Source: Candidatus Pacearchaeota archaeon (lineage in GTDB: Archaea > Nanobdellota > Nanobdellia > Pacearchaeales > GW2011-AR1). Taken from it: a DNA stretch of 64,000 nucleotides. The notes beneath the pieces were generated by a model. The model was not told the origin of the DNA. It saw only the letters and a program-made list of their open reading frames with translations, and did not search any database. The position numbers were made by a program, and so were the translations under genes. The stretch lies in contig JAGLQO010000005.1 of the NCBI GenBank assembly GCA_023136775.1, forward strand, positions 8,198-72,197, in the 5' to 3' direction. Shown piece by piece: positions 4,744 to 63,010 of this stretch (position 1 is its first letter; every line of letters starts with the position of its first letter).

Positions 4744-5084
4744 TCATTTTCAAACAACTTTCCATTTAAAAAACTTATCACAAATATTTATCACCACTCA
4801 AGGGTATTTCATTTAGATAAGCTTCGCTTATCATATTATATAAGTCTCCCTCATTCCGCTTCGCTACATTCACTCAGGCAAACCACTACATTCTCTCCAC
4901 TTCGTTCCATTCATTCCGCTGCCCACAACTTGTTAAACTAAATCCATAAAGAGTTACGACAATTTTCTAAAGAAAATCATCACACCTCCTCATGGAGCAA
5001 AATAACAATAAAACCACTCCACAAAAAGCAAACTTCTGTGGAAAAATAAGATATCAATTGTTCATTACATTTACCTCAAAAATT

Positions 5085-5330
5085 ACAGCTTCCATAAGAA
5101 CATCGTGGCGTCCGCAGATGCCACGATTTTTTATGGAAGAAAGCAGCCAAGCATGCGAAATTCAATTCTAGGTGCAGGTTGTCCACCTTTATGAAGGACG
5201 GCACCGTCAAGAAATTTAATTTGACCCCAGAAATCCGCAATTCGTGGGTCTGCCGAGGGGCCGCCTTACATTTTTTATTAGAATTTTAATTTTTTATTAG
5301 AAAATTAAAATTCTAATAAAACTAACCAAA
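5085..5330 (+). ncRNA. candidate structured ncRNA inside R1 copy i (identity unknown; weak SRP-RNA-like GGAAGAAAGCAGCCAAG motif)
   Basis: Segment noticeably GC-richer than surrounding DNA. Nested perfect stems cttccata/tatggaag, cgtggc/gccacg, ggtgc/gcacc, gtcc/ggac, gtcaa/ttgac. No ORF. Confidence 0.2.
5277..5317. terminator. perfect 17-bp inverted repeat attagaattttaatttt / aaaattaaaattctaat (AT hairpin)
   Basis: Seen directly. Lies between the structured region and the 3' end of the aglH-like gene, so it may be a bidirectional terminator. Confidence 0.3.
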
Positions 5331-5352
5331 TTTCTTCCCCGGGGTTCTTTGT

Positions 5353-6354
5353 TTAAAGAAGGCCGAACGCAATCAAAATAAACAAAATCTGAAAAGCAAA
5401 AATCAAATAAGTAACCTTCTTCTCAGTAGCCCGCTTACCCAAAATCTTAATCGCCAAATGCTCAAGCCCATAAATTTTATCATAAGGCATTTTCAAAGTT
5501 CCATCCTTCCGCGGAATTCCAAAAGAATGTTTATGAAGTCCCCCACGAAGTTTTAAAATCATCTCTATAATATAAGGGATAAAAACAATCAAAGCAATCT
5601 TTTCAAAATTCCCAAGAATCGCCATACCAGCAATCAAAGCCCCAATAGAATAAGTCATAATATCCCCAGGAAAAACTTTTGCCGGAACTTTATTAAAAAT
5701 ATAAAACGCAACGAGAGCAGCAACCATACAAAGTCCAATAATCGCAAGCCAAGGACTTCCACTTTGATAAGAAACAAACGACAAGAATCCCAAAATTAAA
5801 ATTCCCTGCCCAGCCTCAAGCCCATTAAATCCAGCCAAAAAATTATAAGTTGTAGTTACCCCAGCAACCGCGAAAGGAATAATCAAAAGAGGATACAAAA
5901 TTCCAAAATTAACTGACCCAAAAAAAGGCAAATTCATAGAATGAACTCCAGCATTAACAACCACCAAAGGAATAGACGCAATAAAAGCAAGAGCAACCCG
6001 AACATGACTAGGCAAACCTCCACTCTTCCATCCAAGCAAATCATCAACCAACCCAATAACACCAAGTATCAAAACCATACTAAGCAAAGAAAATATCTCG
6101 ACAACATGTGGAGTTCCGTCAAACAAGAAAGTCTTCAAAGCAAGATAAGATAAAACAGATAAAACAAAAGCCATAACGACGATAACTCCACCTGAAGAAG
6201 CAACATTTTTCGGATGCCCATATTTATTCATATCTTCCCAAGTAAGCCCAATTTTTCGACAATTACGAATCCATTTAGGAAGCGCGAACGAAGCTAACAT
6301 AAAGCTAATCACAAATGAAATCATTAACAGATATTCCATAAAAAAACTGAACAA
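5353..6354 (-). CDS. aglH: UDP-GlcNAc:dolichyl-phosphate GlcNAc-1-phosphate transferase family (AglH/WecA/MraY-like, GT4)
   Basis: About 10 TM segments, IGLVDDLLG (DDxxD-like) and NFLAGFNGLEAG (NxxNxxDGxxGL) motifs typical of polyprenyl-phosphate HexNAc-1-P transferases. Confidence 0.7.
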   Translation of the reverse strand: MFSFFMEYLLMISFVISFMLASFALPKWIRNCRKIGLTWEDMNKYGHPKNVASSGGVIVVMAFVLSVLSYLALKTFLFDGTPHVVEIFSLLSMVLILGVIGLVDDLLGWKSGGLPSHVRVALAFIASIPLVVVNAGVHSMNLPFFGSVNFGILYPLLIIPFAVAGVTTTYNFLAGFNGLEAGQGILILGFLSFVSYQSGSPWLAIIGLCMVAALVAFYIFNKVPAKVFPGDIMTYSIGALIAGMAILGNFEKIALIVFIPYIIEMILKLRGGLHKHSFGIPRKDGTLKMPYDKIYGLEHLAIKILGKRATEKKVTYLIFAFQILFILIAFGLL

Positions 6355-6477
6355 TTAATACTTAAAACACTTCCGTTTTCATTTATTGAAACTTTGTTTC
6401 AATTATATAATTGCACGTCGCTTCGCAACGCACGGCTGCAAATCGCGAAATTAAATTTCGCTCCAACGCATAAAAAT

Positions 6478-6915
6478 TTAAGCCCTTGTTATTTCCAAAT
6501 AAATTCGCTTAGTAAAATCAACTACATCTTTTGCATATTCCAAGTCAAAAATCATCCCATAATAAATCATCCCATTTCTAAAATATCTGAGCTTATTCAA
6601 AAACTGCACATCATTTTCCCGTTCCAGAATTTTTCTAGAAAAAGCCACTTCTGCCTCATGGGCTCCATGCCCAGTAGAAGAATAGCCCAAAAGAAACATT
6701 TTCGAGCGGATACTTTCTAAAATAATATCATAACAGTCTTTAATTACAGAATTAGAATTTTTCTTATTTATTCCCATTAATTCAACTCTTTCAATTAATC
6801 CATCAAAAGAAAGTTTAGATTCTTTTTCCAAAAATTCAGAACGAGATTTATCCACACCCTGTTTCCTAACGATTCCTTTTTCTAAAAAATAATCAAAATC
6901 CTTAAGCAGTCTCAC
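6478..6915 (-). CDS. HEPN domain protein (toxin-like partner of the upstream nucleotidyltransferase)
   Basis: 4-nt overlap with the NTase gene. Size and helical composition fit HEPN. Motif not cleanly resolved by eye. Confidence 0.45.
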   Translation of the reverse strand: MRLLKDFDYFLEKGIVRKQGVDKSRSEFLEKESKLSFDGLIERVELMGINKKNSNSVIKDCYDIILESIRSKMFLLGYSSTGHGAHEAEVAFSRKILERENDVQFLNKLRYFRNGMIYYGMIFDLEYAKDVVDFTKRIYLEITRA

Positions 6916-7457
6916 AATTCAATTCCTCCAGAATAAACGACCCCATTAAACAAATTCTCTTTCAAATTTTTATGTATCTTAGAAAACGAATCATAAAATT
7001 GTAAAATAATTTCCCTCTCCAAAACCCTCTCATATTTATCTAAATTAATTTCCTTTTCCTTCGCCCCAATAATAGCAATATCTATATCTGACTTCAAAGT
7101 GTCCTCGCCTCTAGAATAACTCCCAAATAGCACAATTGTAGCAGTCGGAAATTTCTCCTCCAAAAATAAATAAAGTCCAGATTCATAAATAGAATTAAAA
7201 TTAAAAATTCTTTTCATGTTAACAATTAAAGAATTATCAAAATTTAAATCAATTTCACTTCTCCCAGATTTATCAATCCCAATATTAACTAATTTCATTT
7301 TAACCAATCCAGGAAGCGCCTTCCCAATCGCAGTAGGGGAAACTCCTATTATTTTTGACAAATCTCGCTGACTCAAAACACTTCCAACCTTAACAAATAA
7401 AACATCCAAAATATTTCGTTGTAAAATTGTAAACTTTAATTTATCACTATAAACCAT
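6912..7457 (-). CDS. wHTH-fused minimal nucleotidyltransferase (MNT)
   Basis: LFGSYSRGEDTLKSDIDIAIIG (GSx9-13DxD NTase motif) after an N-terminal HTH-like segment. Confidence 0.6.
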   Translation of the reverse strand: MVYSDKLKFTILQRNILDVLFVKVGSVLSQRDLSKIIGVSPTAIGKALPGLVKMKLVNIGIDKSGRSEIDLNFDNSLIVNMKRIFNFNSIYESGLYLFLEEKFPTATIVLFGSYSRGEDTLKSDIDIAIIGAKEKEINLDKYERVLEREIILQFYDSFSKIHKNLKENLFNGVVYSGGIEL

Positions 7458-7519
7458 AGTTTACACAAGTAAACTTTAGTTTATATACGTTTTGAATAAT
7501 ATAATCAATAAAATTTTCA

Positions 7520-7741
7520 TAAAAAAGCGTGGCGTTTTTCCGAAGGAAAAATTGCTCTTTTATGAAAAAGTACTCCGAACAACGGGAATTTCGCCTCGAA
7601 GATTCGAAACTAGGCGCGTCAAATGACGAAAGAAATTCCCTCAATATATCAGACCGTCTGCGACGTTAGTCGGTAAGCGGTTCGGAAATTGAGGTCCTGT
7701 GTGGACCCCCAAAACCTGAGATTTTTTTCACCAGAAAAAAC
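7520..7741 (+). repeat. R1 repeat, partial copy A
   Basis: Carries ccgaacaacgggaatttcgcc, gcgcgtcaaatgacgaaa, aatatatcagaccgtctgcgac, gtcggtaagcggt, hairpin ggtcc-tgtgt-ggacc and ttttcaccagaaaaaa. Confidence 0.6.
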
Positions 7742-7743
7742 TC

Positions 7744-8598
7744 TCAAAAGAGTAACGGCGTCAAATATACTTCCATTAAAGCCGCAACAATCAAAACACC
7801 AATAGCAATAATTATCAACAATAAGGAATCTTGCAAAATCTTCCAAGTCCCTTCACCTCGAAGATCTTTCCTGATAACTGCAACAGAAACTATTCCACCC
7901 GCCAAAGCCCCAATAAAATAAGCCCCAATCTCAGGAATCCCATGAATCATATATCTTCCCAAAGCCAACGGCAAATTAATCAAACGACCCTTAGTAAAAA
8001 TCCCAATCGCAGCAGCAATAACCGAAGCATTCCAAACCAAAATAAATATAGCTCCCGCCCCAAAGACCAGCGAAAACAAAATCGTAAATATCAAAACATA
8101 AATATTATTAGCAAATATTGCCAGAAGAGCATTAGCTCCAGTAACTGAACCAGTCATCGACGGAACGCCATGTTGCTCAATACAATAGCTGTAATGCGAA
8201 GGAGAATTAATAGCACAAAAAGTTTTTATCTGAAAATTAAAATTCTGTCCAGCACTGTTTGGAAGAACTAAATACCAAATAGAAAGTGCAACAACAAATC
8301 CCAAAAACATCCACATCATAGCTCGAATTGCTTTTGAATGTTCTTTAATCAGCTTCCCAGAATTACTTATCTCAATATCTTTTTCTTCTTCCAACTTAAT
8401 AACATAATACATAAATGGCATACATGCAATAACTGTAAAAGTAACCACAAGGAGTCCACTACCGTCTTTCAAAACAGAATCATTCCCAAAAACAAAAGTA
8501 ACGAGAAGCAACGCAACCGACGCCCAAAACGCCCCAACAAAAAACATTTCCCATGGTCTCCTTTCCGCATGCTTCGGCTTCATTAAAAGTTCTATCAT
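7744..8598 (-). CDS. DUF95/SpoIIM-like polytopic membrane protein
   Basis: 284 aa with multiple TM segments. Weak resemblance to the COG1300 family. GGAGG 7 nt upstream of the ATG. Confidence 0.35.
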   Translation of the reverse strand: MIELLMKPKHAERRPWEMFFVGAFWASVALLLVTFVFGNDSVLKDGSGLLVVTFTVIACMPFMYYVIKLEEEKDIEISNSGKLIKEHSKAIRAMMWMFLGFVVALSIWYLVLPNSAGQNFNFQIKTFCAINSPSHYSYCIEQHGVPSMTGSVTGANALLAIFANNIYVLIFTILFSLVFGAGAIFILVWNASVIAAAIGIFTKGRLINLPLALGRYMIHGIPEIGAYFIGALAGGIVSVAVIRKDLRGEGTWKILQDSLLLIIIAIGVLIVAALMEVYLTPLLF

Positions 8599-9659: not shown

Positions 9660-9753
9660 TGGCATATTATCCAATTACATAAGGCATTTTAGAATAATTA
9701 TTTATGACGATTTATTTGAGAACTTTTATAAACAATAAATTCATTTACAATGT

Positions 9754-11598
9754 ATGAAAAAAGTGGGTGTATTAATTGTATTATTATTAATTGTGTTCAC
9801 TCTAGCTCCGCTGACCTTAGCCGCAGATAACGAGACAGAAGAGAAAAGCGAAATTGAAAAAGCATTCGATTGTCTAGAAGAAAAAGTTGATGATTGCAGC
9901 AAGATAACGACTCAAGAAATCGCTTTAACAATTATGGCCACACCAGACAATGTATTTAATGATTGCGTCGAAGAATTAGAAAACCGAGAAAAATCCAACA
10001 ATTGGAATGGAAATGTTAGAGATACCGCTCTAGCTGCTCTAGCATTAAAACATGCAGGCAAGGACACATCCGCTATAGAAGAATGGCTATTCCAACAAGA
10101 ACAAATTCCAAGAGAATTAGATTGGTTTATGCAACTAGATGCCAACGAAGCAATGAAATGTACAATCAGCTATGACTCCGAATCATATGAAAGTATTGAA
10201 ATAGGGGAAAATAAAAAAATACAAACTGCTGCAGGTAGTTGTCTAAGTTTAGCCAGACAAGGTTTTTGGTTCAGAGTCGGAGACAACTGTTACGAAAAGG
10301 AATTTTCTATTAAATGTGACAAAAATTTTATTTCTAGTTTGTTGTATGAGAATGGAGAATCCATTCCCAGAACTACCTATGTTTTAGAAGGAACAAAATC
10401 TGCTCCCGCCTACGAAGAAATTACATTAGATGTCAGATCAAAATGCTTCGGAAAGAGTGGCTGTGATTATGAGGGAACGGTTTGGGCAGCCTTGGCATTA
10501 AAGAAATCCGGACACGACATTGATGATTTTATTCCTTATATTGTTGCCATGACAGATACAAACAAAAAATACTTGCCTGACGCTTTTGTATATATGTTGA
10601 CAAATTATGAAGATTATGCAACTAAATTAGTAGCAAATCAAAAGCTCGGAGACTTTTGGGAAGCAGACCTTTCTCTTTACAAAAAATACTATGACACATC
10701 TTTGGCATTACTAGCTTTAGGAAGTTCCTCATCCGAAAGAGTAAACGCCGCTGAAGGTTGGATGTTATTTACTCAAGGAAGCAATGGATGTTGGCAAAAT
10801 TCTGTTAGGGATACAGCAATTGCTCTTTGGGCCATAGAAGGAAGACCAGGAAAAGCACCAAGTAGCGAAGGTGGAAATAGTCATACACTTTGTAGCGAGG
10901 CTAATTATTTTTGTATTCCAAATAGTGAATGTCCAGCAAATGAAGTTATGGGGAATTTTTATTGTTCTTCTTTGTCGACCACATGTTGTGCCACTGAAAA
11001 TTTAAAGACCTGCTCTGAATATATCGGACAAGCTTGTTTAGGGGATACATTTTGTGTTGGAAATGAACGTAGAAGTAGCGATGTTGATAAGTGTTGTACA
11101 GGAACTTGTGAAGAAAGACCTCAAGAAAGCGAATGCGAGGCTAATTTTTATACTTGTGCAGATTTTTGTAGTGAAACTCAAGAAAATGCATACTTAGATT
11201 GTGATGGTGGTCAAGTTTGCTGTAGAAACAAAGTAGCTGCAAAAGAGAAGAAATCTTTGTGGTGGATATGGTTAATTCTTTTTATTTTATTAGCTGTCCT
11301 TGGAGCTTTAGCTTATGTTTACAGAGAGCAATTAAAAGAAAAGCTAGAAGAAATCAAAAAGAAAATGGGCAAAGGAAAAAGTGGTGCGCCTACTGGTGGG
11401 CCTAAAGGACCACCAAGAAGACCAGGTATGCCTCAACGACCAGGTATGCCACCAAGAAGACCAGGTATGCCTCCTCGTCCAGGATCTCCTCCAGTAACTA
11501 GGCCGCAAATTCCAGGAAGAAGACCGATGCCGGGGTACAGAGAAGATCCAGCAATGAGAGAAACTTTTAGGAAGCTCAGAAAAATTGCAGCAAGATAA
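9754..11598 (+). CDS. secreted surface protein with alpha/alpha-toroid (prenyltransferase/squalene-cyclase-like) repeats, C-terminal Cys-rich domain, TM anchor and Pro-rich tail
   Basis: Signal peptide ...PLTLA|ADN. Repeats NVRDTALAALAL, GTVWAALAL, VRDTAIALWA. About 30 Cys in the last 200 extracellular residues. TM LWWIWLILFILLAVLGALAYVY. Tail of PRRPGMP repeats. Confidence 0.6.
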   Translation: MKKVGVLIVLLLIVFTLAPLTLAADNETEEKSEIEKAFDCLEEKVDDCSKITTQEIALTIMATPDNVFNDCVEELENREKSNNWNGNVRDTALAALALKHAGKDTSAIEEWLFQQEQIPRELDWFMQLDANEAMKCTISYDSESYESIEIGENKKIQTAAGSCLSLARQGFWFRVGDNCYEKEFSIKCDKNFISSLLYENGESIPRTTYVLEGTKSAPAYEEITLDVRSKCFGKSGCDYEGTVWAALALKKSGHDIDDFIPYIVAMTDTNKKYLPDAFVYMLTNYEDYATKLVANQKLGDFWEADLSLYKKYYDTSLALLALGSSSSERVNAAEGWMLFTQGSNGCWQNSVRDTAIALWAIEGRPGKAPSSEGGNSHTLCSEANYFCIPNSECPANEVMGNFYCSSLSTTCCATENLKTCSEYIGQACLGDTFCVGNERRSSDVDKCCTGTCEERPQESECEANFYTCADFCSETQENAYLDCDGGQVCCRNKVAAKEKKSLWWIWLILFILLAVLGALAYVYREQLKEKLEEIKKKMGKGKSGAPTGGPKGPPRRPGMPQRPGMPPRRPGMPPRPGSPPVTRPQIPGRRPMPGYREDPAMRETFRKLRKIAAR

Positions 11599-11652
11599 TT
11601 TTATTATTTTTAGTCCAGTTAAATTTATTAATTAATTGATATTCTATTAACT

Positions 11653-12975
11653 ATGAAAAAGTGTGTGATATTATTATTCTTAATTGTAATTTCTTTTGCT
11701 AATGCTGAGCCTATTTTAAAATTCCAAAATGAAGATATTCAATCTGGAGAAACTATTTTAGCCACAATAAATACCACGGGCAAATTTACAAAACAAATTG
11801 AGAGCAGCAATTTAGTGTTTTACAAAGGTCGAAAGAAAACAATATTCGAACACGATGTTATATATTACGACGGAATACATTATGTTTTTATTTATGCTAA
11901 TAGGGATGGAGAATTTGAAATAAGAATAGAAAATATCCTATACAAAGAAAATGACACCTTAAAATCATCTAACATAATAAAACCATTTAATATAACTACC
12001 AATATAAAAATCGATGAAGAGACTAACGAAACAATAACAGAAATTTTAGAAATTCGTCCAGGAGCAGTTTATTTTCCAAAAGATACATATATAAAATTAT
12101 TCAACAAAGGGACTATCCCCTTAGAATTAAAATATGGCAAAGAAAAAATTATAATAGAGCCTCTTACAACAAAAAAAATTGAACTCGAACCTCAAGAAAA
12201 ATTTTCGCTATTTGAAGTTGAGGGATATAAAGATTTTTCAATTCCAATTATTTATCCAACACTTGAAGATGAATTTGTCTCACCAATAATAAAGTCTGAT
12301 TTGAAAGCTGACCCAGATTTTTTTGTTTCCGAACTTTTTGTAGATGTCAAAGAAACCGAATTTATTCAAATATTTAACCTTGGAGATAGTGACATCACAG
12401 ATTTAGAAATTATGACAGATATAGAATACATAAGGACTGGAAAGTTAGAGAACATGGTGGGCAGACAGATTCAAAATTTAAGCGTAAAAATAGATGCGGA
12501 AGCTGCTGGACATTTTGAAGGAGTAATAAATATTACTTATTTTTCTAATAACGAATCAAATTACCTAAAAATTCCAGTGAGTATATATGCCCTACCAAAG
12601 GGAACCAATGAGACTGAATTCGAAGTGTTAGATGATTCCTGTGATAATTTAAACGGGCAAGTTTGTAAAAAAGGAAGTATTTGCGAAGAAGATGCAGATC
12701 AGCGTTTCACCAGTGACGGAAAATATTGCTGTTTTGGAGAATGTATCGAAACAAAAACAGGTTCAAGTGCGGATTCAGATTATGGTTGGATAATAGCAGT
12801 AGTAATTCTTGCAGCACTCGGGGGCTATGGATATTATATGTATAAAAAACAAAAAAACCTCACTCCAAAAAAACCAAGTGAGAGATTAAAAGAATCAGTA
12901 GCTGGATATAAAAAGAGAATGGCAGTAAAGCCAAAATCAACTTTGAGAGTCAAAGGAAATTTACAAAAATCCTAA
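11653..12975 (+). CDS. secreted, C-terminally membrane-anchored protein (Cys-rich stalk)
   Basis: Signal peptide ...SFANA|EP. C-terminal TM WIIAVVILAALGGYGYYMY followed by a basic tail. Confidence 0.5.
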   Translation: MKKCVILLFLIVISFANAEPILKFQNEDIQSGETILATINTTGKFTKQIESSNLVFYKGRKKTIFEHDVIYYDGIHYVFIYANRDGEFEIRIENILYKENDTLKSSNIIKPFNITTNIKIDEETNETITEILEIRPGAVYFPKDTYIKLFNKGTIPLELKYGKEKIIIEPLTTKKIELEPQEKFSLFEVEGYKDFSIPIIYPTLEDEFVSPIIKSDLKADPDFFVSELFVDVKETEFIQIFNLGDSDITDLEIMTDIEYIRTGKLENMVGRQIQNLSVKIDAEAAGHFEGVINITYFSNNESNYLKIPVSIYALPKGTNETEFEVLDDSCDNLNGQVCKKGSICEEDADQRFTSDGKYCCFGECIETKTGSSADSDYGWIIAVVILAALGGYGYYMYKKQKNLTPKKPSERLKESVAGYKKRMAVKPKSTLRVKGNLQKS

Positions 12976-13248
12976 TTATTTATTTTGAATAAACCAATCT
13001 ATTTTATCATATTTATACAAAGTTTTTACGTAGCATTCATGTTTTTGAGCAACAGACCGATTCTCACATTCTTTAAAATGAAGCAAACATTTAAACCTTT
13101 TACTTTTAACATACTTTGCACCCTTACCCTCAGCATGCGCCTTCATTCGTTTATCCAAATCATTAGTGACGCCACAATAAAACGAACCATCTTGACATTC
13201 CAACAAATATACAAACCAAGATTTTTCTTTAGAAATAGTAGCGTCCAT
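12976..13248 (-). CDS. GIY-YIG nuclease family protein (UPF0213-like)
   Basis: WFVYLLECQDGSFYCGVTNDLDKRMKAHAEGKGAKY matches the GIY-YIG fold motifs. Confidence 0.6.
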   Translation of the reverse strand: MDATISKEKSWFVYLLECQDGSFYCGVTNDLDKRMKAHAEGKGAKYVKSKRFKCLLHFKECENRSVAQKHECYVKTLYKYDKIDWFIQNK

Positions 13249-13958
13249 CAGTATTGCAAATCAAGATTTTTTTTCTTAGCACAAGCCGAACATAAAAGTG
13301 CAGTCTCTTCTAAACTCATATAATACCGATTTCCTTCCTCAAGAATGTCGTTAAACTTATCCCAACCTTCTTCGATGGTAAGCTTTCCAGAAACAACTTC
13401 CTCAGGAACTTTAGCAGCTTTTTCTAAAAGGTCAGTCCTTTTCTTAAACATATTATAATGAAATAAATTTGGCTTAGCAGCCTTAGAAATTTTCTTACTA
13501 CAAAGATAACATTTTGCTTGAGTCATCAGAAGTTCTTGTTCTCGAATGGCCCACTGAAGTTGAAAGTCGCTGTCTTGGATAAGATGCTTGTAATTTCCAA
13601 TTCCCCCAAGCCTATTAAATGTCAAAGTAATTTCTTCATCTTCAGTATTTCTATCCCTAATAACGATTTCACCAATTTTTCTAGAATATCTCCATATTGG
13701 ATATTTCCTCTCACCCTTAGGAGTAGTCGTCGGTCTGCCAATTCTATAAGCTTTATATCCAGTCTTAATATGACCAATAGACATTTCCTTTTTGAGAGCA
13801 GTAGTCTTAATTATTTTCTCCTTAACTTTTTTAGCAGCAGTCTTTTCCTTCCTAGAAACATAACCCTTTTCACCCGGAAGAATATTTGGAGTAACGATAA
13901 CCATAATAAAGAAACGCAAATTTGTTTTATAAATCTTAGCGTCGATAATCAGACACAC
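13248..13958 (-). CDS. hypothetical protein with C-terminal CxxC...CxxC zinc ribbon
   Basis: ORF only. CYLCSKK...CSACAKK. Start may be the internal MVIVT. Confidence 0.35.
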   Translation of the reverse strand: MCLIIDAKIYKTNLRFFIMVIVTPNILPGEKGYVSRKEKTAAKKVKEKIIKTTALKKEMSIGHIKTGYKAYRIGRPTTTPKGERKYPIWRYSRKIGEIVIRDRNTEDEEITLTFNRLGGIGNYKHLIQDSDFQLQWAIREQELLMTQAKCYLCSKKISKAAKPNLFHYNMFKKRTDLLEKAAKVPEEVVSGKLTIEEGWDKFNDILEEGNRYYMSLEETALLCSACAKKKNLDLQY

Positions 13959-13984
13959 AACATATTAGATTTGGAGAACGTTCC

Positions 13985-14530: not shown

Positions 14531-14729
14531 AAATCTTTATATACCCAAATTTCTCAGTCTAATTATTGATTCCATTCAAAACTTAAATGTTTGGATGATG
14601 AGAATTTTGTGATAGGTTGGTCACGATAAATCCAAGGGTGCTACCGAGGAATTATCAAGTAGCGAAAACTACTGCAGAAAAGAAAAAGGAAACGAAAGTT
14701 TTCAATGTTCTTTTCAGGAAACAAAACAA

Positions 14730-29266: not shown

Positions 29267-29297
29267 TCTTTATATAGGATAATTTACAATATTAAAT

Positions 29298-51894: not shown

Positions 51895-54288
51895 ATGAAA
51901 AAAATATTTAGAAAAGCTATAACAGTTTTAGGAAGTGCTGCTTTAATTGGTGCTACTGTAGGTGCGGCTGCTGCTGCTGCTTACCCTGCTCAATTTACAG
52001 CAAGTAACACAGTTATCGTTTACGGATCCGACTCTGGAGCCGCTGATAACATTGCTACTACAGCCCTAAATGCTGATTTATTATCTTTAGCTGCTGGTTC
52101 TACAACTACAACAACTGTTGAAGGTGGAGAAGTTTTTTCTTTAGGTAAAGATTCTGACGAGTTTGAATTTGGTTACAATTTATCTAGTGTTTTCACAAGC
52201 TTAGATGATGGTGAAATGGAAAGTTTCTTAGCTGATGGAGAATATGACGATGGAGTTATTGATTCTGAATTTTCTCAAGAGATTACTTTAGGTACTCAGG
52301 CATTAAGTTTATTCGCTGATACTGATTACGACGACGATAAGACTCCAACAATTGGATTCCATTTCGATGATACTGAAGTTTTATCTTACGAGATGACTTT
52401 GGATGATTCTGATGAAGTTTATGTAAACATGATAGATACTGAAATCCCATTAATGGGAAGAGAGTATTATGTTCTGGATGCAACAGCTGACGAGGTAACT
52501 CTATTGGATTCTGCTGAAAAGGTAGTTGTTACTGAAGGAGAAACAATAACTGTTGATGGTAAAACAATTTCTATATCTGTTGCTGCTGAAACATATGTAA
52601 GGTTTGTAGTTAATGGAGAAATGACTGATAAGTTACACGATTCTGGTACTGATTACGACTTGTATCAAGAATTAGATGATGGTTCTTATATAGTAGTATC
52701 TTCAAATGATTACAATGCTAAAGATAGTGGAATTAGTAGTGCTGAAATTTCTATTGGTAAAGGTAAGTTAACTTTATCTAATGATGGTGGAGAAGTTGAA
52801 ATAAACGATGAAACCGTTACTGGATTAACATCTTACGTATATTCTACTGGAACTACTCCAGTTAATGCTGTAGGCACAGAAGTAATCAAGTCTATTAAAT
52901 TGACTTGGACTACTGATGATGAAGAATTTTTAGTTGAAGGAGGAGCTATGGTTATGCCAGGCTTTGAAACAATCAAGGTTCTATTTGGTGGAATGAACTT
53001 TCCAGAAGACTCTGAAAAGATATCAATTGACAATGGAGAAACTGTTACATTAAACATGGAAAATTTCGATGTTGATTTAATGTATGCTACTACTGAAGCA
53101 AATGGTGTTCAAGGTGACGATGGTAATTTATTACACATTGATGCAACTCCGAGTTCCACAAAAACATATTTCCTAAAAGATGGAGATAGATTCTTGGCTA
53201 CTGATTTAGATGAAACTTTAAGTGAGGTTGAACAACTTTACTATGAAGTTACTACATTGAGGAATGATTCTAACGGATTTGACTTAGTGCTAAATGATTT
53301 AACAGATGCTGATAAAGACATACCATTTGATGATGATGAAGCTGACGAAACTGATACCTCTCGAGGTGACGTAGAGGTTAAGCTAAATTTAGTTTATGAA
53401 GATGGTGTTAATGTTACTGATGCTGATGCCGCATTAATTGATGCAGCAGGTTTATCTACCGCTCTATTGACTAGTTATCCTAGTGATAACTCTACATTAG
53501 TAGAGATTGCAAAGGTTACTGTTACTCAAGACGATAGTATTGATTTACATTTCGACAAGGTAGTTTCTGATACTGGTATGATTGTAGAGATCCCTGTAGC
53601 TGCTGATGTAGCAGATAACGACGATCTTTTAATCTTCTACGAAGCTAAAGATGATGGTGATTTAGAAACAACATTTTCATCTGCTACTGCTGATATCTAT
53701 GCCGATTTAGATTGGGATACTTCTGATGAATATGTATATGCAAATGAGAATTCTACTGCTATTACTTTCAAGGAAGAATCTGATAACAATTACATAGGTT
53801 ATGTTGAATCTGATTTAACATCTATGGTTAGTTATGATACAGACGCACACTCTTACGAAATAACATATTTCGGAGAAGAGGTTGTTGCTGACGTTTCAAT
53901 TGCATCTGCTGATGCTGTACTTTCTACTTCTACAGAATCTGGAAACTTAATTGTTTTAGATACTGATGCTGATAAGCTCGTTGGTAAAAACTTGATTGTT
54001 GTTGGTGGTTCTGCTATCAACCGTGTTGCTGCTGATTTACTTAGTTTAAATTACCCATCTTATGGTGCTGATTTCACTGAGAAGACTGGTATTGCTGACG
54101 GACAAGCTCTAATTGAAGTTTTCCCTTACAGTGGGAATACTGCTATATTAGTTGCTGGTTACACGGCTGCTGACACTGCAAAGGCTACAACTTACTTACT
54201 TCACGAATCCGAAGATTTCGATTTGGTTGAAGGAGCTAAGTTAAAAGTTACATCTGCTACTGAAGCTACTGTTGTTACTACTGCTTAA
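51895..54288 (+). CDS. S-layer-like acidic, Thr/Asp-rich secreted protein
   Basis: Signal peptide ...GAAAAAA|YPAQ. 797 aa with no Cys. GGAGG SD 8 nt upstream. Strong hairpin terminator downstream. Confidence 0.5.
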   Translation: MKKIFRKAITVLGSAALIGATVGAAAAAAYPAQFTASNTVIVYGSDSGAADNIATTALNADLLSLAAGSTTTTTVEGGEVFSLGKDSDEFEFGYNLSSVFTSLDDGEMESFLADGEYDDGVIDSEFSQEITLGTQALSLFADTDYDDDKTPTIGFHFDDTEVLSYEMTLDDSDEVYVNMIDTEIPLMGREYYVLDATADEVTLLDSAEKVVVTEGETITVDGKTISISVAAETYVRFVVNGEMTDKLHDSGTDYDLYQELDDGSYIVVSSNDYNAKDSGISSAEISIGKGKLTLSNDGGEVEINDETVTGLTSYVYSTGTTPVNAVGTEVIKSIKLTWTTDDEEFLVEGGAMVMPGFETIKVLFGGMNFPEDSEKISIDNGETVTLNMENFDVDLMYATTEANGVQGDDGNLLHIDATPSSTKTYFLKDGDRFLATDLDETLSEVEQLYYEVTTLRNDSNGFDLVLNDLTDADKDIPFDDDEADETDTSRGDVEVKLNLVYEDGVNVTDADAALIDAAGLSTALLTSYPSDNSTLVEIAKVTVTQDDSIDLHFDKVVSDTGMIVEIPVAADVADNDDLLIFYEAKDDGDLETTFSSATADIYADLDWDTSDEYVYANENSTAITFKEESDNNYIGYVESDLTSMVSYDTDAHSYEITYFGEEVVADVSIASADAVLSTSTESGNLIVLDTDADKLVGKNLIVVGGSAINRVAADLLSLNYPSYGADFTEKTGIADGQALIEVFPYSGNTAILVAGYTAADTAKATTYLLHESEDFDLVEGAKLKVTSATEATVVTTA

Positions 54289-54650
54289 ATCTTAAGTTAA
54301 AAACAAATTTTTTATTTTTTTATTTTTACTTTTGATTCGCCCTTCGGGGCGAATCAATATCTATTCTTGATTAATTTCGAGAAGGATTTTCCTTTCTTTT
54401 GCTTATGTCGAGAAACTAAATTTTTATCTAAACTCCAAGGCAATTTTAGCCACGGATTACTCAAGACTTTAACGGATTCAAGACAAAAGCAGAAAGACAA
54501 ATTGGCTCACGGATTACACGGACGTCTTCGACGTTCACAGATTCAAGACAATAACTTGGATAACAATTTTTATTTAATCTACCAGCTAGTACCTTAATCC
54601 GTGAATACCGAAGGTATCCGTGAAATCCGTGAGCAAATTGTATTCCTGCC
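54088..54650 (+). repeat. direct repeat copy 1 (S-layer gene 3' end, terminator and downstream, carrying an extra inverse R2 module)
   Basis: Matches 56044-56510. Downstream 200 bp near-identical, coding part diverged. Confidence 0.7.
54334..54355 (+). terminator. hairpin gattcgccc-ttcg-gggcgaatc (9-bp perfect stem) after T-rich run
   Basis: Seen directly, 46 nt after the S-layer gene stop. Duplicated at 56282. Confidence 0.5.
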
Positions 54651-54671
54651 TTGAAGTAGTCCATAATTATT

Positions 54672-55973: not shown

Positions 55974-56041
55974 ATAATCGCCAAGTATCCTAATCTTTTA
56001 AATCTATTTTATGCAATGTAGCGAAGCTTTTACTTCTACCA

Positions 56042-56236
56042 TTGGTGTTGCTGACGGAGAATTCTCGAATCCAATCTTTCGATAGATCTGGAAAGACTGC
56101 TCTATTAGTTGCTGGTTACAGTGCAGCCGATACAACTAAAGCCGCTACTTATTTACTAAACGAAGACGTTGATACAACTGTCGGAGTTAAGGTAAAAGGT
56201 ACATCTGCTACTGAAGCTACTGTTGTAACTGCTTAG
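56042..56236 (+). pseudogene. orphan C-terminal fragment of an S-layer-like gene (second copy of the direct repeat)
   Basis: TALLVAGYSAADTTKAATYLLNED...GTSATEATVVTA parallels the C-terminus of 51895-54288. No upstream gene body. Confidence 0.55.
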
Positions 56237-56281
56237 ATCTTAAGTTAAAAAACAAATTTTTATTTTTTTATTTTTACTTTT

Positions 56282-56303
56282 GATTCGCCCTTCGGGGCGA
56301 ATC
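56282..56303 (+). terminator. second copy of gattcgcccttcggggcgaatc hairpin
   Basis: Seen directly. Confidence 0.45.
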
Positions 56304-56479
56304 AATATCTATTCTTGATTAATTTCGAGAAGAATTTTATTTTCTTTTGCCTATGTCGAGAGACTAAGTTTTTATCTAAATTCCTAAAACAAATTAGCTC
56401 TCAGGACTTTTGGGGATTTGAAGGATTCAAGGCAATAAATTGAATAATAATTTTTATTTAATCTACTAGCTAGTGTCTT

Positions 56480-56506
56480 AAATCCGTGAGAATCCGTGAG
56501 CAATTT
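56480..56506 (+). repeat. R2 core dimer aaatccgtgagaatccgtgagcaattt
   Basis: Seen directly. Confidence 0.5.
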
Positions 56507-58893: not shown

Positions 58894-58950
58894 AAGATAT
58901 AAAAAAATTAGAAAGAAAAATCAATAGGAAAAAAAGAATTCCCATCAAAC

Positions 58951-58998
58951 AAAGAAACAAAGAAACAAAGAAACAAAGAAACAAAGAAACAAAGAAAC
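58951..58998. repeat. octanucleotide microsatellite (aaagaaac)x6
   Basis: Seen directly. Confidence 0.7.
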
Positions 58999-59047
58999 TA
59001 GAATAAAAAATACAATTACCTATAAATCTCATCCAATACTCCCAAAT

Positions 59048-59150
59048 TCATTGTCCCCAATCCGTGAATGGGCAAGCCCATCCGTGCAATCCGTGAGCAA
59101 AAATTGCCTTCCTTCCCCTTGCCTCGAATCCTCTGAATCCATCAAATCCG
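59048..59150 (+). repeat. R2 module (hairpin tgggcaagccca)
   Basis: aatccgtgaatgggcaagcccatccgtgcaatccgtgagcaaaaa...ctgaatcc...aaatccgcgagcaaaa. Confidence 0.65.
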
Positions 59151-59205
59151 CGAGCAAAACAGCTTTCCCAACAAGTTATTTAAACTAACATCTCAATATT
59201 ATTAA

Positions 59206-60962: not shown

Positions 60963-61067
60963 ATACATAAAATCAATTAGATGAAAAATTTCTACGCAAT
61001 AAAAATTCAAATCGCTCAATTAGAGAAGCTCTGCTTCTCGTATGCAATATAGTTCTTTCATGTCTTA

Positions 61068-61132
61068 AAATCCGTGAATGACGAAGTCATACGTGTAATC
61101 CGTGAGCAAATTGCTTTTTGTCTTGAATCCAA
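61068..61132 (+). repeat. R2 module (hairpin tgac-gaa-gtca)
   Basis: aatccgtgaatgacgaagtcatacgtgtaatccgtgagcaaattgc...cttgaatcc. Confidence 0.6.
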
Positions 61133-61141
61133 AACCCAAGT

Positions 61142-61681
61142 TTATTTCCCCTTCCCCTTAATCCCCTCACCAGACAATTTTCTAATATACATAAAATCAG
61201 TATATCCAGGAACAGCCTTTATCTTAAAATACCTAACAACACCAAACCAAATTCCAACAACAAACAAAGTAGACACCAAATGCCAAAATATCCAATGCAC
61301 TAATTCAAAATTTGAAGTTCCAATTAAGCCAGCCAAAACCAAAAGCCTAAACATATTGACAATAAAAAAAGCCACCAAAGAAGCCCCAACAACCTTAATC
61401 CTAGTCTTCCAATTCATAGCTGTCAACATAACTAAAACGAACAAAAGATAATAAGCAGCCCCTGCAACGCACGCAGGAACTATCTCCACAACAGTCTCAC
61501 CAAAATTAACAATATTTCCATACAAGTTAGCCTCGGTAAAAAGATTAACAATAAAATAAAAAACACGAACAGTCAACGGAGTAAGAACCTTGTAAAACAA
61601 ATATAAATCGCCAAGTCCAAGCAAAAGCACAGCAAAATATCTAGAAAACAATCCAATCAATTTTTTATTCTGTTTGTCCAT
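61142..61681 (-). CDS. small polytopic membrane protein, candidate archaeosortase/exosortase-family
   Basis: 179 aa, about 5 TM. IVPACVAGAAYY (Cys in a TM helix) and NMFRLL (Arg), loosely like the exosortase catalytic Cys/Arg arrangement. Confidence 0.3.
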   Translation of the reverse strand: MDKQNKKLIGLFSRYFAVLLLGLGDLYLFYKVLTPLTVRVFYFIVNLFTEANLYGNIVNFGETVVEIVPACVAGAAYYLLFVLVMLTAMNWKTRIKVVGASLVAFFIVNMFRLLVLAGLIGTSNFELVHWIFWHLVSTLFVVGIWFGVVRYFKIKAVPGYTDFMYIRKLSGEGIKGKGK

Positions 61682-61692
61682 AATTTTTTCTC

Positions 61693-62535
61693 CTATTTTT
61701 CAATTAATTTTTTCTTTTTAATATCTAAATAATTGTTTTTTGACACAACACTTTTCCCAAGCGTATTTTCAAAATCAATTCTTGCATTTCCCGCAACTTT
61801 ACCACCATCTTTAGCATCATCTTTCAATCTTGGAAATCCCTCAGAATCGCGTTCTTTAGTTAATCTTGTAGTGGTCGCCTCTCCAAGCATAGTAAGAATT
61901 AATTCAACATCATCCATATGATCTCTTAGATTTTCCTTGTCCAAATTCTTATGATTTTTGTATTCGTCAACCGTTTTGCCGAATGTAGCTTTAGAAATTT
62001 CGTTAGTTAAAATAGCAAAACCCTTACCATCTTCAACTCCCCTATTTTTCCACTCATCTGTTAAACTTTGTCTAACAGCAATTCCACGAATCCGTTTATC
62101 TACCCAAGATTTGGGATAACCTTTCTGTTCATAAATAGTTTTCATCCTATCTTGGGCAAGTTCAGGATTCTCAATTTCATCAATTCTATCTGAACCAACC
62201 TTCGCCAACCATAATTTAAATGGCTCAGCTTTCTTAGATGGAATTGATTGAATAATTCTGAGAATACCTTGTTTATCGGCACAATCAGTCTTATACGTTT
62301 TCCCATCATTTGACATCATTTTCAGTTGTACCCAAATTGGGGACAACTGAAGTTGCACAAATTCTCTATTTTTAACTTTCCCCCAATATTGTCTTGGATT
62401 GGGACTCTCACTTAAAACTCCGACAACATCAACAATACTAAAAAACCATTCCCCCCTGTACAAGATTCTCCTAATCCTCTTATTATCAAAAACAATCAAT
62501 TTCTTATCTTCCATGATTAATATAAATTCTATCAA
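61693..62535 (-). CDS. Bro-N/KilA-N domain protein
   Basis: LIVFDNKRIRRILYRGEWFFSIVDVVGVLSESPNPRQYW matches the Bro-N signature. Confidence 0.55.
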   Translation of the reverse strand: MIEFILIMEDKKLIVFDNKRIRRILYRGEWFFSIVDVVGVLSESPNPRQYWGKVKNREFVQLQLSPIWVQLKMMSNDGKTYKTDCADKQGILRIIQSIPSKKAEPFKLWLAKVGSDRIDEIENPELAQDRMKTIYEQKGYPKSWVDKRIRGIAVRQSLTDEWKNRGVEDGKGFAILTNEISKATFGKTVDEYKNHKNLDKENLRDHMDDVELILTMLGEATTTRLTKERDSEGFPRLKDDAKDGGKVAGNARIDFENTLGKSVVSKNNYLDIKKKKLIEK

Positions 62536-62624
62536 AGTTTTATACTTTTCTAATCATTTCCATATATCCAAAAACAAACAGAGCTTTAATTAATTATTGA
62601 AACTTAGTGGTAGTGTTTTAGAGA

Positions 62625-63010
62625 AGCTGTGCTTCTCGTATATCATAAGTCTCCCTCATTTCGCTCCGCTACATTCACTCGGGCAAATCACTACGCTAAC
62701 GCTCCGTTGCACAACTTACTCATTTAATCGTTCGGGGAACCCTTGCTCCAAAAAATAAAAGCTGACTTCCACTAAAAATAACAATACTCCATGAGAAATG
62801 CAGCGTCCGAAGATGCTGCAATTTATTATGGAAGAACATTCCGAACAACGGCGAAACAAATGTTTCGCCTCAATATATCAAATCATCTGCGAGGGTCTGC
62901 CCCAACCTAAAAAATATATATCAGTGAGGGTGCGCTAGTCGGTAAGTGATTTGGAATCTAAAATCCTGTGTGGATTTTTACGAAGAAAATTTCACCAGAA
63001 ATTTTTTCGG
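62625..63010 (+). repeat. R1 mosaic repeat, full copy iii (starts with hairpin gagaagctgtgcttctc)
   Basis: agtctccctcatttcgctccgctacattcactc...ctccatgagaaatgcagcgtccgaagatgctgcaatttattatggaagaacattccgaacaacgg...aatatatcaaatcatctgcgag...agtcggtaagtgat...aaaatcctgtgtggatttt...ttcaccagaaa. Confidence 0.6.

Follow-up and report, generated by a model that had tools for sequence, protein, structure and literature searches.

R1 is a repeat family that lies in the intergenic spacers of some Pacearchaeota (DPANN archaea). With about even confidence, we read it as a lineage-specific, non-coding family of modular hairpin arrays with fast turnover, which would be mobile or dynamic at the single-strand level and coupled to replication. 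R1 does not serve as promoter or leader for rpl3, secY or the DUF106/EMC3 gene. The seven copies reported in a first-pass annotation of the window (the whole 64,000-nt stretch analysed here) are all present, at the positions given for them or at most a few tens of bases away, although copy D starts at ~29085, earlier than the claimed 29130. All seven are on the + strand, and eight further copies lie close by, outside the window on the same 102-kb contig (Candidatus Pacearchaeota MAG GCA_030641395.1), so that 14 of the 15 contig copies are on +.

4812–5345, +: copy A (long), between STT3 (−) and GT4 (−); 5′ part 4812–4889 with hairpin GATAAGC-TTC-GCTTATC plus the conserved C-rich block AGTCTCCCTCAYTYCGCTYCGCTACATTC; P1 hairpin 5089–5140; T module 5142–5345 replacing the usual 3′ module and ending 8 nt from the GT4 stop codon.
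7516–7749, +: copy A2; P1-like hairpin 7516–7572; hairpin ACTCCGAACAACGGGA; X hairpin GGGAATTTCG...GAAATTCCC; 3′ module 7636–7749 (98.2 bits) with S1/S2, Y (GGTCC-TGTGT-GGACC) and Z, Z overlapping the SpoIIM (−) stop codon by 5 nt.
13963–14532, +: copy B (long; 96.8 bits), flanked by a divergent 218-aa gene and by rpl3; 5′ hairpin and C-rich block; P1-like short hairpin 14143–14175; acgac..ttcctaaagaaaatcgtc block; P1 with UUCG-capped extension 14294–14356; X; 3′ module 14419–14530.
14536–14543, +: rpl3 TATA box TTTATATA, an ordinary box downstream of copy B and outside the repeat.
27446–27589, +: copy C (89.6 bits), consisting solely of the 3′ module, whose Z carries an insertion; on its 5′ side the stop codon of an inserted 269-aa gene, on its 3′ side the secY TATA box (27594–27601) and leaderless ATG (27626).
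29085–29267, +: copy D (91.4 bits); P1 3′-arm remnant; hairpin ATTCCGAACAACGGGAAT; short X (GGGAATTTG-AAA-CAAATTCCC); 3′ module 29161–29267; downstream, the EMC3/DUF106 TATA box (29269–29276) and ATG (29298).
29800–30045, +: copy E (70.6 bits), in the convergent gap EMC3/primase, at one breakpoint of the r-protein block inversion; inverted T-module fragment 29842–29884 (minus sense); S mini-module 29909–29940; P1 29985–30033; R2 repeat 30066–30150 directly after.
61020–61064, +: isolated fragment resembling the R1 5′ hairpin (TTAGAGAAGCTCTGCTTCTCGTATGCAATATAG), adjoining an R2 repeat.
62617–63013, +: copy G (long; 82.8 bits and 72 bits); 5′ hairpin and C-rich block; P1 62786–62835; X (GGCGAAAC-AAAT-GTTTCGCC); 3′ module 62865–63013 with a 47-nt insertion in the S2 loop; Z foot 1 nt from the stop codon of a convergent surface-protein gene.

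The 16-mer ATCARAYCRTCTGCGA occurs five times against 0.01 expected, which excludes chance, and TTCACCAGAAA, allowing at most one mismatch, nine times against 2.6 expected. The family is also recovered by repeat finding and by self-BLAST, with E-values as low as 5e-29. All the ordered blocks listed earlier were found again, including the 5′ block, acgac..ttctaaagaaaatc, the tccatga...tcatgga stem, cattccgaacaacgggaat, gcgcgtcaaatgacg, atatatcaRaccRtctgcgac, gtcggtaag and ttttttcaccagaaaaaaagccaac. The change from aaatcc-tgtg-ggattt to ggtcc-tgtgt-ggacc is indeed compensatory, one of many such changes, but its carrier is the 7516–7749 copy and not copy A. The first part of the copy A T module (5142–5184) recurs, inverted, at 29842–29884. 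Copies are 70–87% identical to one another and no pair is near-identical; the best pair, at 87%, thus falls short of demonstrating recent transposition.

R1 is built from the modules P1, X, S1/S2, Y, Z and T, plus a 30-nt insert S, found singly or in ordered combinations, and each of P1, X, S1/S2, Y, Z and T is a hairpin maintained through compensatory substitutions. The covarying hairpins already proposed were borne out in the 3′ module and in P1. A covariance model of the 3′ module gave 20 distinct matches, with 92.6% of cells paired in alignments fitted to the model (slid controls, 36–66%); 20 of 24 pairs have changed on both sides, which none of 500 shuffles equalled. In a plain MAFFT alignment of P1, 89.5% of cells are paired versus 38–49% in slid controls, and four pairs show an AU/GU/GC series. 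Whole elements fold into strings of five hairpins (z = −6.0 and −4.4 with RNA parameters, −6.9 with DNA parameters). Owing to G·U/G·T wobbles, the + strand folds better in 12 of 13 P1 copies, by 5–12 kcal/mol, and in all 17 S1/S2 copies; Y and Z, the latter made up of a T-run, a loop and an A-run, are equally stable on both strands. In-phase C(GAA)G triloops, which correspond to the d(GNA) mini-hairpin motif (PMC13037366, PMC3201870), are common in P1, X and T. The S mini-module, sometimes part of a ~70-nt unit, sits inserted in the loops of other modules: in the S2 loop of copy K, at the P1 apex in L039, and within or beside Z and X in L024 and L017. R1 showed neither terminal inverted repeats nor target duplications.

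Co-orientation of R1 extends over at least 87 kb, whatever the orientation of the genes. On other contigs the copies are all + (L014) or all − (L016, L017, L023/24, L026, L029, L031 and L032). Copies C and D lie inside a recently inverted r-protein block, yet are oriented with the chromosome strand rather than with the genes. Relative to R1, skew at third codon positions has the same sign on nine of nine contigs (11 regions; GC3 −0.19 to −0.67, AT3 +0.15 to +0.48) independently of gene strand; on all nine, the best-folding strand of P1 and S1/S2 is the C/A-rich chromosome strand at these positions. The same skew is also present in relatives without R1. By the usual skew convention, the C/A-rich strand has lagging-type sequence and is the leading-strand template. 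It is solely from this compositional skew that we infer a link between R1 and replication; neither an origin nor a terminus of replication was evident.

At orthologous sites in close relatives, R1 is present, absent or oppositely oriented. The closest relatives have R1-free spacers of 30–70 nt at the same sites, with a range of 30–97 nt for the genes of the proposed cassette; L027 and L033, whose secY is 89% and 83% identical, have compact spacers without R1, and L031 and L032 carry P1 units only. In the more distant L029 the same gaps contain P1, 3′ and T modules, here antisense to secY.

The first-pass annotation had proposed a shared promoter/5′-leader cassette that drives or regulates highly expressed genes (the rpl3 operon, secY, DUF106/EMC3), a reading largely refuted here and one that we consider very improbable. 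Its appeal lies in spacing. Z is 29–37 nt from a leaderless ATG in six copies (L014, L016, H, C, D and N2), and the element's 3′ end lies at this distance before secY, EMC3, a 121-aa gene and IF5A, as well as before two genes in a related organism. Element 3′ ends also lie upstream of the rpl3 and rpl1 promoters, and in the copies upstream of IF5A and rpl1 (just outside the window) similarity extends through the TATA box, so that some copies may have brought a promoter along. Copy B, however, is not immediately upstream of rpl3 but ends 200 nt before its ATG (14730); the rpl3 TATA box is excluded from the repeat because the spacer between repeat and box varies, and the rpl3 leader is thus ~165 nt. 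The real boxes are generic: ordinary TTTATAWA boxes stand 21–32 nt before leaderless ATGs, 3′ of the repeat, and R1-free genes have the same type. The internal TATA-like box, rejected as a promoter, lies directly beside the 5′ strand of S1, which covaries with its downstream partner, and an RNA begun ~25 nt 3′ of it would lack half of the S1 stem. Furthermore, half of the R1 copies have opposite-strand genes on one or both sides (A, A2 and G are flanked by minus-strand genes), and 8 of 18 3′ modules instead place the element's 3′ end against a convergent gene's stop codon, with Z within −38 to +3 nt of it in eight copies, seven of these within 5 nt. Orientation independent of neighbours, TATA boxes downstream, and relatives in which the same genes have R1-free or oppositely oriented spacers leave the cassette unsupported. 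The warning of false in-frame ATGs upstream of secY holds, since 455-aa homologues (100% coverage) support the start at 27626.

An RNA element, also suggested earlier, is a live rival, though we think it unlikely. The modules would be structured RNAs under RNA-level selection, either small non-coding RNAs or cis-acting transcript parts (terminators, stabilisers, processing sites), and the repeated copies paralogous RNA genes or UTR elements. Consistent with this, G·U is the most frequent pair at three P1 positions, with AU/GU/GC series; the + strand is the more stable under RNA parameters (P1 12/13, S1/S2 17/17); copies A and B have UUCG-capped stems; U-runs terminate P1 and Z; an internal loop that never varies, AUCUG/GUAAG, points to contact with a protein or to a tertiary interaction; and in five copies the P1 loop CCGCAGAUG complements CAUCUGCG(G) of the same element. 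Against it, a conserved promoter is absent upstream of both P1 and the 3′ module, and the internal TATA-like box abuts S1. Orientation follows chromosome strand composition and ignores neighbouring genes; with the genes in their ancestral order, R1 runs antisense to the majority, so that read-through transcripts would be of the wrong strand. Many loops are GAA triloops, poor in RNA, Rfam yields no match even at E = 5, and presence among close relatives is erratic. Improbable, in our view, is that R1 is immobile host sequence, that is, terminator/insulator or chromosomal-protein binding arrays evolving in place and spreading only through local duplication or gene conversion, with co-orientation due to selection connected with replication–transcription conflict. 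The ends of Z and T do coincide with gene ends, both strands have T-runs, no copies are recent, and the T module at GT4–STT3 retains position and relative orientation in the window and L029 (16942–17117). Such immobility is at odds with one S unit inserted in different loops, with empty sites in the closest relatives and with a secY–EMC3 spacer that carries oppositely oriented modules in two genomes; stem sequence varies freely while pairing is retained, which argues against sequence-specific double-strand binding.

The modular hairpin array remains our preferred reading, even though fixed-position wobble pairs, a few UUCG loops and possible loop–loop complementarity fit RNA at least as well as DNA. 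R1 may have colonised spacers by acting and spreading as folded single-stranded DNA in step with replication, either through an enzyme encoded elsewhere that recognises hairpins and nicks or transfers strands, as in HUH/Y1 transposition or attC recombination, or through orientation-dependent survival of hairpin arrays at the replication fork. A search of ~270 kb of sequence that carries R1 or is related revealed no transposase, HUH enzyme, recombinase or reverse transcriptase, a result that also suits immobility. The genome would tolerate or exploit R1, we propose, because T-tract hairpins act as transcription terminators and insulators where genes are tightly packed.

BOX elements of Streptococcus pneumoniae, Correia, RUP and ERIC are modular MITE-like repeats, with ordered, optional or repeated modules, strong predicted secondary structure, and intergenic positions near gene starts and ends with possible side effects on transcription, all features that R1 shares. 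R1 differs in its lack of terminal inverted repeats and target duplications, in hosts and sequences, and in its chromosome-wide orientation bias. The RAYT/TnpA-REP-mobilised REP/BIME repeats of enterobacteria and pseudomonads are likewise abundant, intergenic and non-coding, with imperfect-palindrome units in mosaics with variable linkers and compensatory differences between copies; they are strain-polymorphic, often at the 3′ ends of genes, and believed to work as folded single strands (PMC3333891). However, REPs are 30–40 nt, with a conserved 5′ GTAG and REP/iREP inverse pairs (PMC3333891), whereas R1 modules are 40–110 nt, without GTAG and co-oriented; R1 is also archaeal (DPANN), has no RAYT gene found, and is locked in orientation to chromosome strand composition. 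IS200/IS605-type single-strand transposons and the non-autonomous PATE elements derived from them resemble R1 in their hairpins near the ends, absence of inverted terminal repeats and target duplications, strand-specific structure and replication-tied orientation bias (PMC5027513, PMC6006769). In R1, no TnpA/TnpB was found and no cleavage tetranucleotide identified, internal hairpins are many, and the folding strand is the C/A-rich one, opposite to the IS200/IS605 active strand on the lagging-strand template (PMC5027513). Integron attC sites of sedentary chromosomal integrons are, like R1, structure-defined, sequence-variable single-strand hairpins, co-oriented, and the strand that folds is reported to lie on the leading-strand template (PMC5371416). 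R1 has no integrase and no R″/R′ core sites (RYYYAAC/GTTRRRY); attC flanks cassettes, whereas R1 is a multi-hairpin array that flanks core genes such as secY and rpl3.

The window is a reversed 64-kb part of contig DAOWHN010000006.1 (102 kb; MAG GCA_030641395.1), and reading of this contig was extended by 8.3 kb past the left end of the window and by 15 kb past the right end. The window has a G+C content of ~33% and carries a ribosomal-protein operon, from rpl3 at 14730 through L15, together with secY, the EMC3/DUF106 gene and, elsewhere, glycosylation genes and a variable region with many HEPN/MNT, Bro-N and AlbA_2 genes. The proteins are listed at NCBI under 'Candidatus Pacearchaeota archaeon', and homologues of secY (80-91% identity) carry the names Pacearchaeota or Nanoarchaeota. 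Repeat finding and sensitive self-BLAST recovered all seven copies of the intergenic repeat family R1 reported in the first-pass annotation, all of them on the + strand and with every sequence block listed there present, and a core 16-mer of R1 occurs 5 times against 0.01 expected. Eight further copies (H, I, I', J, K, N1, N2 and N3, with I' inverted) lie just beyond the window on the same contig, so that 87 kb contain a total of 15 elements, of which 14 share one orientation. Within these 87 kb, R1 fills nearly all intergenic gaps longer than 200 nt and makes up ~5% of the contig sequence, roughly one third of the intergenic DNA.

R1 copies, secY and the EMC3/DUF106 gene in the window
4812-5345, + strand, R1 copy A
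7516-7749, + strand, R1 copy A2
13963-14532, + strand, R1 copy B
27446-27589, + strand, R1 copy C
27626-28993, secY
29085-29267, + strand, R1 copy D
29298-29708, EMC3/DUF106 gene
29800-30045, + strand, R1 copy E
62617-63013, + strand, R1 copy G

The hairpin modules of R1 form a mosaic: their order is fixed, and individual modules are optional. Long copies have at their 5' end a short hairpin and then a C-rich, G-poor block (AGTCTCCCTCAYTYCGCTYCGCTACATTC). P1 is a hairpin of 42-56 nt whose outer stem (CCATRAGAAAT / ATTTNTYATGG) is almost invariant and whose inner stem varies freely; it is followed on its 3' side by a small hairpin, ATTCCG-AACAA-CGGGAAT, and by the variable hairpin X, which takes the form GGGAATTTCG.../...CGAAATTCCC, GGCGAAAC/GTTTCGCC or GGGC-GAA-GCCC depending on the copy. 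The 3' module follows X: stem S1 (CAAAYC/GRTTTG) surrounds an invariant internal loop (ATCTG / GTAAGN) and encloses the small stem S2 (CGAC/GTCG), with hairpins Y and then Z coming after. Z reads CAAC-G-ATTTTTTC-ACCA-GAAAAAAT-GTTG in the metagenomic Ga0233410 and Ga0075122 copies and at L029, a locus of a relative, and TGGC...GCCA in copies B, D and H; A2 and I have other feet (GAG/CTC, GAC/GTC). The bases at the 3' terminus (GCCAAC, GTTGAT, GTCAAC) are no fixed site: they form the 3' strand of the (extended) Z stem and covary with its 5' strand. Module T, an alternative 3' part, stands in for the 3' module in A and J and lies inverted near E. In-phase triloops of the form C(GAA)G, which is the hyperstable d(GNA) mini-hairpin motif of DNA (PMC13037366, PMC3201870), are numerous in P1, X and T.

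The mini-module S (GGGSYCACCAGRGYCATGYC...GWGRCC) is 30 nt long and stands either by itself or within a ~70-nt unit ending in GTGAGGGTG. It is found in the S2 loop of K, at the P1 apex in N2 and, in a related organism, inside Z and after X, and it is also free-standing near copy E; no other feature points as clearly to insertion events as this presence in loops of several different R1 hairpins (S2, P1 apex, Z). Five copies show an 8-10-nt complementarity within the element, between the apical loop of P1 (CCGCAGATG) and CATCTGCG(G) in the conserved internal loop of S1/S2. The two loops may contact each other, or they may represent a single protein site present in both orientations; the complementarity is missing from the subfamily with a CGAAG loop.

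Sites of S, copies with loop complementarity and the stretch shared by N2 and N3 (L039, contig beyond the window with N2 and N3; other L numbers, further loci)
L010 19664-19735, S mini-module
L039 ~5600-5670, minus strand, S mini-module
L024 4960-5000 and 5075-5105, S mini-module
Window 29909-29940, S mini-module
L039 549-738, copy with loop complementarity
L016 5400-5580, copy with loop complementarity
L023 648-806, copy with loop complementarity
L024 4942-5181, copy with loop complementarity
L039 5430-5460 and 520-550, minus strand, stretch shared by N2 and N3

The hairpins had been described as covarying, and compensatory changes in the 3' module and in P1 bear this out. Among 20 distinct 3'-module matches, 92.6% of cells are in standard pairs and both-sided changes occur at 20 of 24 pairs, equalled by 0 of 500 shuffles and with slid controls at 36-66%, in an alignment that was fitted to a covariance model and so leans towards structure. 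In a plain MAFFT alignment of P1 (18 copies, five genomes), 89.5% of cells are paired versus 38-49% with the partner slid, G.U is the most frequent pair at three positions and AU/GU/GC series are present. Whole elements form five hairpins in a row (z = -6.0 and -4.4 against shuffles). P1 is more stable on the + strand of the element by 5-12 kcal/mol in 12 of 13 copies and S1/S2 in 17 of 17; Y and Z are symmetric. Because P1 and S1/S2 are more stable on the + strand while the stems compensate, the constrained entity is one strand, the + strand of R1. Mutation bias was considered as the source of the wobble asymmetry and rejected, since the G-to-A bias expected on a C/A-rich strand makes A.C mismatches, not G.T wobbles.

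R1 had been proposed to be a shared promoter or 5'-leader cassette for highly expressed genes. This reading is essentially refuted by copy orientation, the internal TATA, the downstream TATA boxes and synteny, and we consider it very improbable. Copies A, A2 and G have minus-strand genes on both sides. Of the 18 3' modules across all genomes, 8 have their Z foot at -38 to +3 nt relative to a convergent gene's stop codon, 5 have it 29-37 nt ahead of an ATG on the same strand and the remainder have it at other distances; the Z foot of copy B, which had been placed immediately upstream of rpl3, is 200 nt from the rpl3 ATG. The internal TATA-like box is directly 5' of the 5' strand of S1, whose covarying partner lies ~25 nt downstream, and RNA begun from that box would miss half of the S1 stem. 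Genes here are mostly leaderless, with TTTATAWA 21-32 nt ahead of the ATG, and copies B, C and D are followed by TATA boxes of this same ordinary type, which lie outside the repeat, 2-6 variable bases away. No archaeal promoter (BRE/TATA ~26 nt upstream, in the orientation of the gene) was found within the repeat, and R1 is not conserved upstream of the same genes in relatives, being absent from L027 and L033 and opposite in L029. In favor of a promoter link, N2 and N3, upstream of IF5A and rpl1, are identical past Z through the TATA box (GTCAAY-AGTAATATTTATAAAYCAAA), and since this identity runs through the TATA box, some R1 copies, including this pair, may have been duplicated together with a promoter.

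The 3' module was also considered as a small RNA gene (TATA, ~55-nt RNA, oligo-T) and rejected, the segment before the putative start being the covarying 5' strand of S1. As a separate observation, rpl3 appears to differ from the mostly leaderless genes of this genome in having a ~165-nt leader (14568-14729), downstream of the TATA box found at 14536-14543; this leader contains an AUGAUGA (C-box-like) motif at ~14594-14600 and has no Rfam match.

R1-related elements in four Ga0233410 contigs (JGI metagenome; possibly of a single genome), in Ga0075122 and in three NCBI/ENA genomes are co-oriented within each of these metagenomic contigs, whatever the orientation of the genes. We calculated G/C and A/T skew at third codon positions for the genes of each strand separately, using simple ORF calls and contigs turned so that R1 is on the + strand. 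In 9 of 9 contigs (11 regions), C exceeds G and A exceeds T on this strand in the genes of both strands, the gene-strand-independent component ranging from -0.19 to -0.67 (GC3) and from +0.15 to +0.48 (AT3); single core genes reach GC3 skews as far as -0.8 to -0.9. The very strong gene-strand-independent G/C and A/T skew (GC3 to 0.8) covers the whole window and the loci L027-L033, L038 and L039. Since third-position skew is also found in relatives without R1, it is a property of the genomes, and it resembles a replication-type asymmetry, one of unusual strength for an archaeon. A G/T-rich strand is the usual leading-strand signature. In the relatives, the coding strand of the r-protein operon is G- and T-rich and thus leading-type, and the structured strand of R1 would therefore be the lagging-type strand, with replication direction derived from composition.

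The order r-proteins, secY, EMC3, IF-2B (minus strand), SpoIIM, GT4, STT3 is kept in all five relatives examined. The spacers in L027 (secY 89%) are 65, 30, 70 and 49 nt long and R1 is absent, as it is from L033; L031 and L032 have P1 units only. L029/L030 (secY 84%) carry P1 both upstream of secY and after EMC3, a 3' module in the secY-EMC3 spacer and T modules in the SpoIIM-GT4 and GT4-STT3 gaps, every R1 module there being antisense to secY. The secY-EMC3 spacer thus holds oppositely oriented 3' modules in two genomes and is empty in L027, L031, L032 and L033. Comparison with the five relatives further shows that the rpl3-EMC3 block of the window's lineage is inverted relative to the IF-2B...STT3 block, with breakpoints in the gaps that hold copies B and E.

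Inversion breakpoints in the window
~9660-14730, gap holding copy B
29708-30198, gap holding copy E

The inversion puts the r-protein operon on the lagging-type strand, and the GC3 skew of the inverted block is still opposite in sign to that of its neighbors, which indicates that the inversion is recent. Copies C and D, within the inverted block, are oriented with the chromosome strand and not with the genes; R1 turnover is therefore faster than re-equilibration of third codon positions, and R1 orientation is set by something chromosome-wide. Replication would be the obvious candidate; no origin or terminus was seen.

Other insertions and repeats were observed in these regions. Small ORFs of 65-100 aa with no Pfam match are numerous between the ribosomal-protein genes in L029, L032 and L033 and absent there from L027 and L031. 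Relative to syntenic relatives, the window has gained several genes, some of which adjoin R1 copies, and four of them (614 aa, 440 aa, GIY-YIG 90 aa and 218 aa) lie at an inversion breakpoint. A second repeat family, R2, consists of ATCCGTGA units around a small hairpin (TGGGC-AA-GCCCA, TACC-GAAG-GTAT or TGAC-GAAG-TCAT), then AATCCGTGAGC; unlike R1, it occurs on both strands, and it clusters near variable, defence-like genes. The variable region also contains several local segmental duplications, 62-89% identical.

Small ORFs, inserted genes and other repeats (window coordinates except for L032)
L032 1975-2202, 3329-3565, 4100-4345, 4564-4782, 5158-5445, 6768-7058, 7539-7814 and 9158-9355, examples of small ORFs
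6478-7457, 40513-41198 and 46163-46836, inserted MNT/HEPN-type pairs
9754-13958, four inserted genes at the inversion breakpoint
26607-27416, inserted unknown gene of 269 aa between L15 and secY
30066-30150, 33808-33930, 50511-50580, 50980-51150, 54498-54655, 56482-56500, 59038-59165 and 61067-61127, R2
58939-59009, 8-nt tandem repeat AAACAAAG, ~7 times
54072-54486 and 56028-56435, segmental duplication
47215-47336 and 47981-48102, segmental duplication
40902-41209 and 46543-46847, segmental duplication

Together, the compensated hairpins, the insertions nested within loops, the patchy occurrence at orthologous sites, the strand-specific fold, the orientation locked to the chromosome strand and the C(GAA)G triloops fit best with R1 elements acting as folded single-stranded DNA in step with replication. 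An enzyme could recognize the hairpins and nick or join them, or the survival of hairpin arrays at the fork could depend on their orientation. Mechanism is the weakest part of this account, as no enzyme was found, there are no near-identical copies (the best pair is 87% identical) and neither terminal inverted repeats (TIRs) nor target duplications were seen. In ~270 kb, no transposase and no related autonomous element with the same ends was found, Pfam scans of 50 neighboring or unknown proteins gave no transposase, HUH enzyme, recombinase or reverse transcriptase, and inspection of the small unknown proteins gave no HUH motif. The fuller proposal, which we regard as unlikely as it stands, is that R1 represents a previously undescribed class of structure-conserved single-strand elements in DPANN archaea with orientation set by the fork, either a hairpin-array transposon (moved by a non-IS200-type enzyme that would act either on the nascent lagging strand or on the leading-strand template) or elements with a replication role; if so, R1 orientation would mark replichores and recent inversions in uncultured Pacearchaeota.

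A structured RNA family is possible, if doubtful: R1 has the covarying helices on one strand that are generic to structured RNAs, and the conserved wobble pairs, some UUCG loops, the invariant internal loop and the complementarity between P1 and S1/S2 loops in five copies all point this way. Against it, R1 orientation is independent of genes, neither a promoter of its own nor steady co-transcription with a host gene was found, P1 has no conserved TATA at -25 or conserved promoter upstream, and Rfam 15 gave 0 matches at gathering score and noise only at E <= 5; no tRNA or tmRNA was found either. Host terminators or protein-binding arrays that stay in place would fit the gene-end positions and do not fit the empty sites and nested S insertions, and we consider them distinctly unlikely. 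As a side role of the end hairpins, terminator or insulator function is plausible, because they contain T-runs and because of where Z sits: it presents a T-run towards polymerases from both sides, exactly at convergent stops or just before promoters.

The R1 family is of interest for several reasons. DPANN genomes are tiny and streamlined; one non-coding repeat family occupies ~5% of this contig, and R1 gives a direct view of how mobile or self-propagating hairpin DNA persists in minimal genomes, apparently doubling as gene-end hairpins. R1 also reveals the very strong replication-type strand asymmetry of the clade, and its orientation and GC3 skew provide an internal compass that exposes the recent inversion of a whole ribosomal-protein operon. 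An enzyme partner, if found, would define a new archaeal single-strand DNA system. For annotation, recognizing R1 avoids false ORFs and false start codons such as those upstream of secY.

The searchable literature gave no description of intergenic repeats or MITEs of this sort in DPANN or Pacearchaeota. The 3'-module pattern had 4 matches, all chance bacterial ones, in a genome contig collection that lacks the source MAG and relatives, and phage and plasmid collections had no BLAST match. Among viral contigs, the R1 5' block and the 3' module had 0 matches, and the P1 pattern matched 4 contigs with one P1-like palindrome each and no 3' modules. Two contigs classed as viral in IMG/VR (L035 7731-7779 and L036 2865-2923) have such a single palindrome (UUCCAUAAGAAAU...AUUUCUUAUGGAA), with no 3' module.

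R1 works most like REP/BIME, BOX-type modular repeats and IS200/IS605-derived hairpin elements, and it lacks the defining features of these, of attC sites and of Rfam families. Unlike MITEs, it has no terminal inverted repeats: in A, B and G, local alignment of the two ends scored lower than the mean of shuffles, and repeat finding on the window gave no such pair either. No flanking direct repeats were seen around R1, whose ends are not exactly defined and for which no closely related empty site could be aligned. REPs are imperfect palindromes of 30-40 nt with a conserved GTAG 5' of the foot (PMC3333891), whereas R1 modules span 40-110 nt with no conserved GTAG in the 3'-module and P1 alignments; REP and iREP pair inversely and have a RAYT, whereas R1 modules are co-oriented and no RAYT or Y1/HUH gene was seen. 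Like IS200/IS605-derived PATEs, long R1 copies have hairpins at both ends (the 5' hairpin and Z) and no TIR, whereas the partner TnpA and conserved cleavage tetra- or pentanucleotide of PATEs are not found in R1. The 3' end GTTGAT/GCCAAC was tried as an IS605-like cleavage site and rejected, its bases belonging to the extended Z stem. The active strand of IS200/IS605 is on the lagging-strand template (PMC5027513); the strand bias of R1 is strong (9 of 9 contigs), and its better-folding, C/A-rich strand corresponds to the leading-strand template by the usual convention, with direction taken from skew. R1 ends do not, on inspection, fit the RYYYAAC/GTTRRRY of integron attC sites, and the gene tables contain no integrase. 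Reportedly, the attC strand that folds in sedentary integrons is located on the leading-strand template (PMC5371416), and R1 would have the same polarity as attC if the usual skew convention holds. The strand-locked orientation, together with the very strong skew of the clade, is the most interesting aspect of R1.
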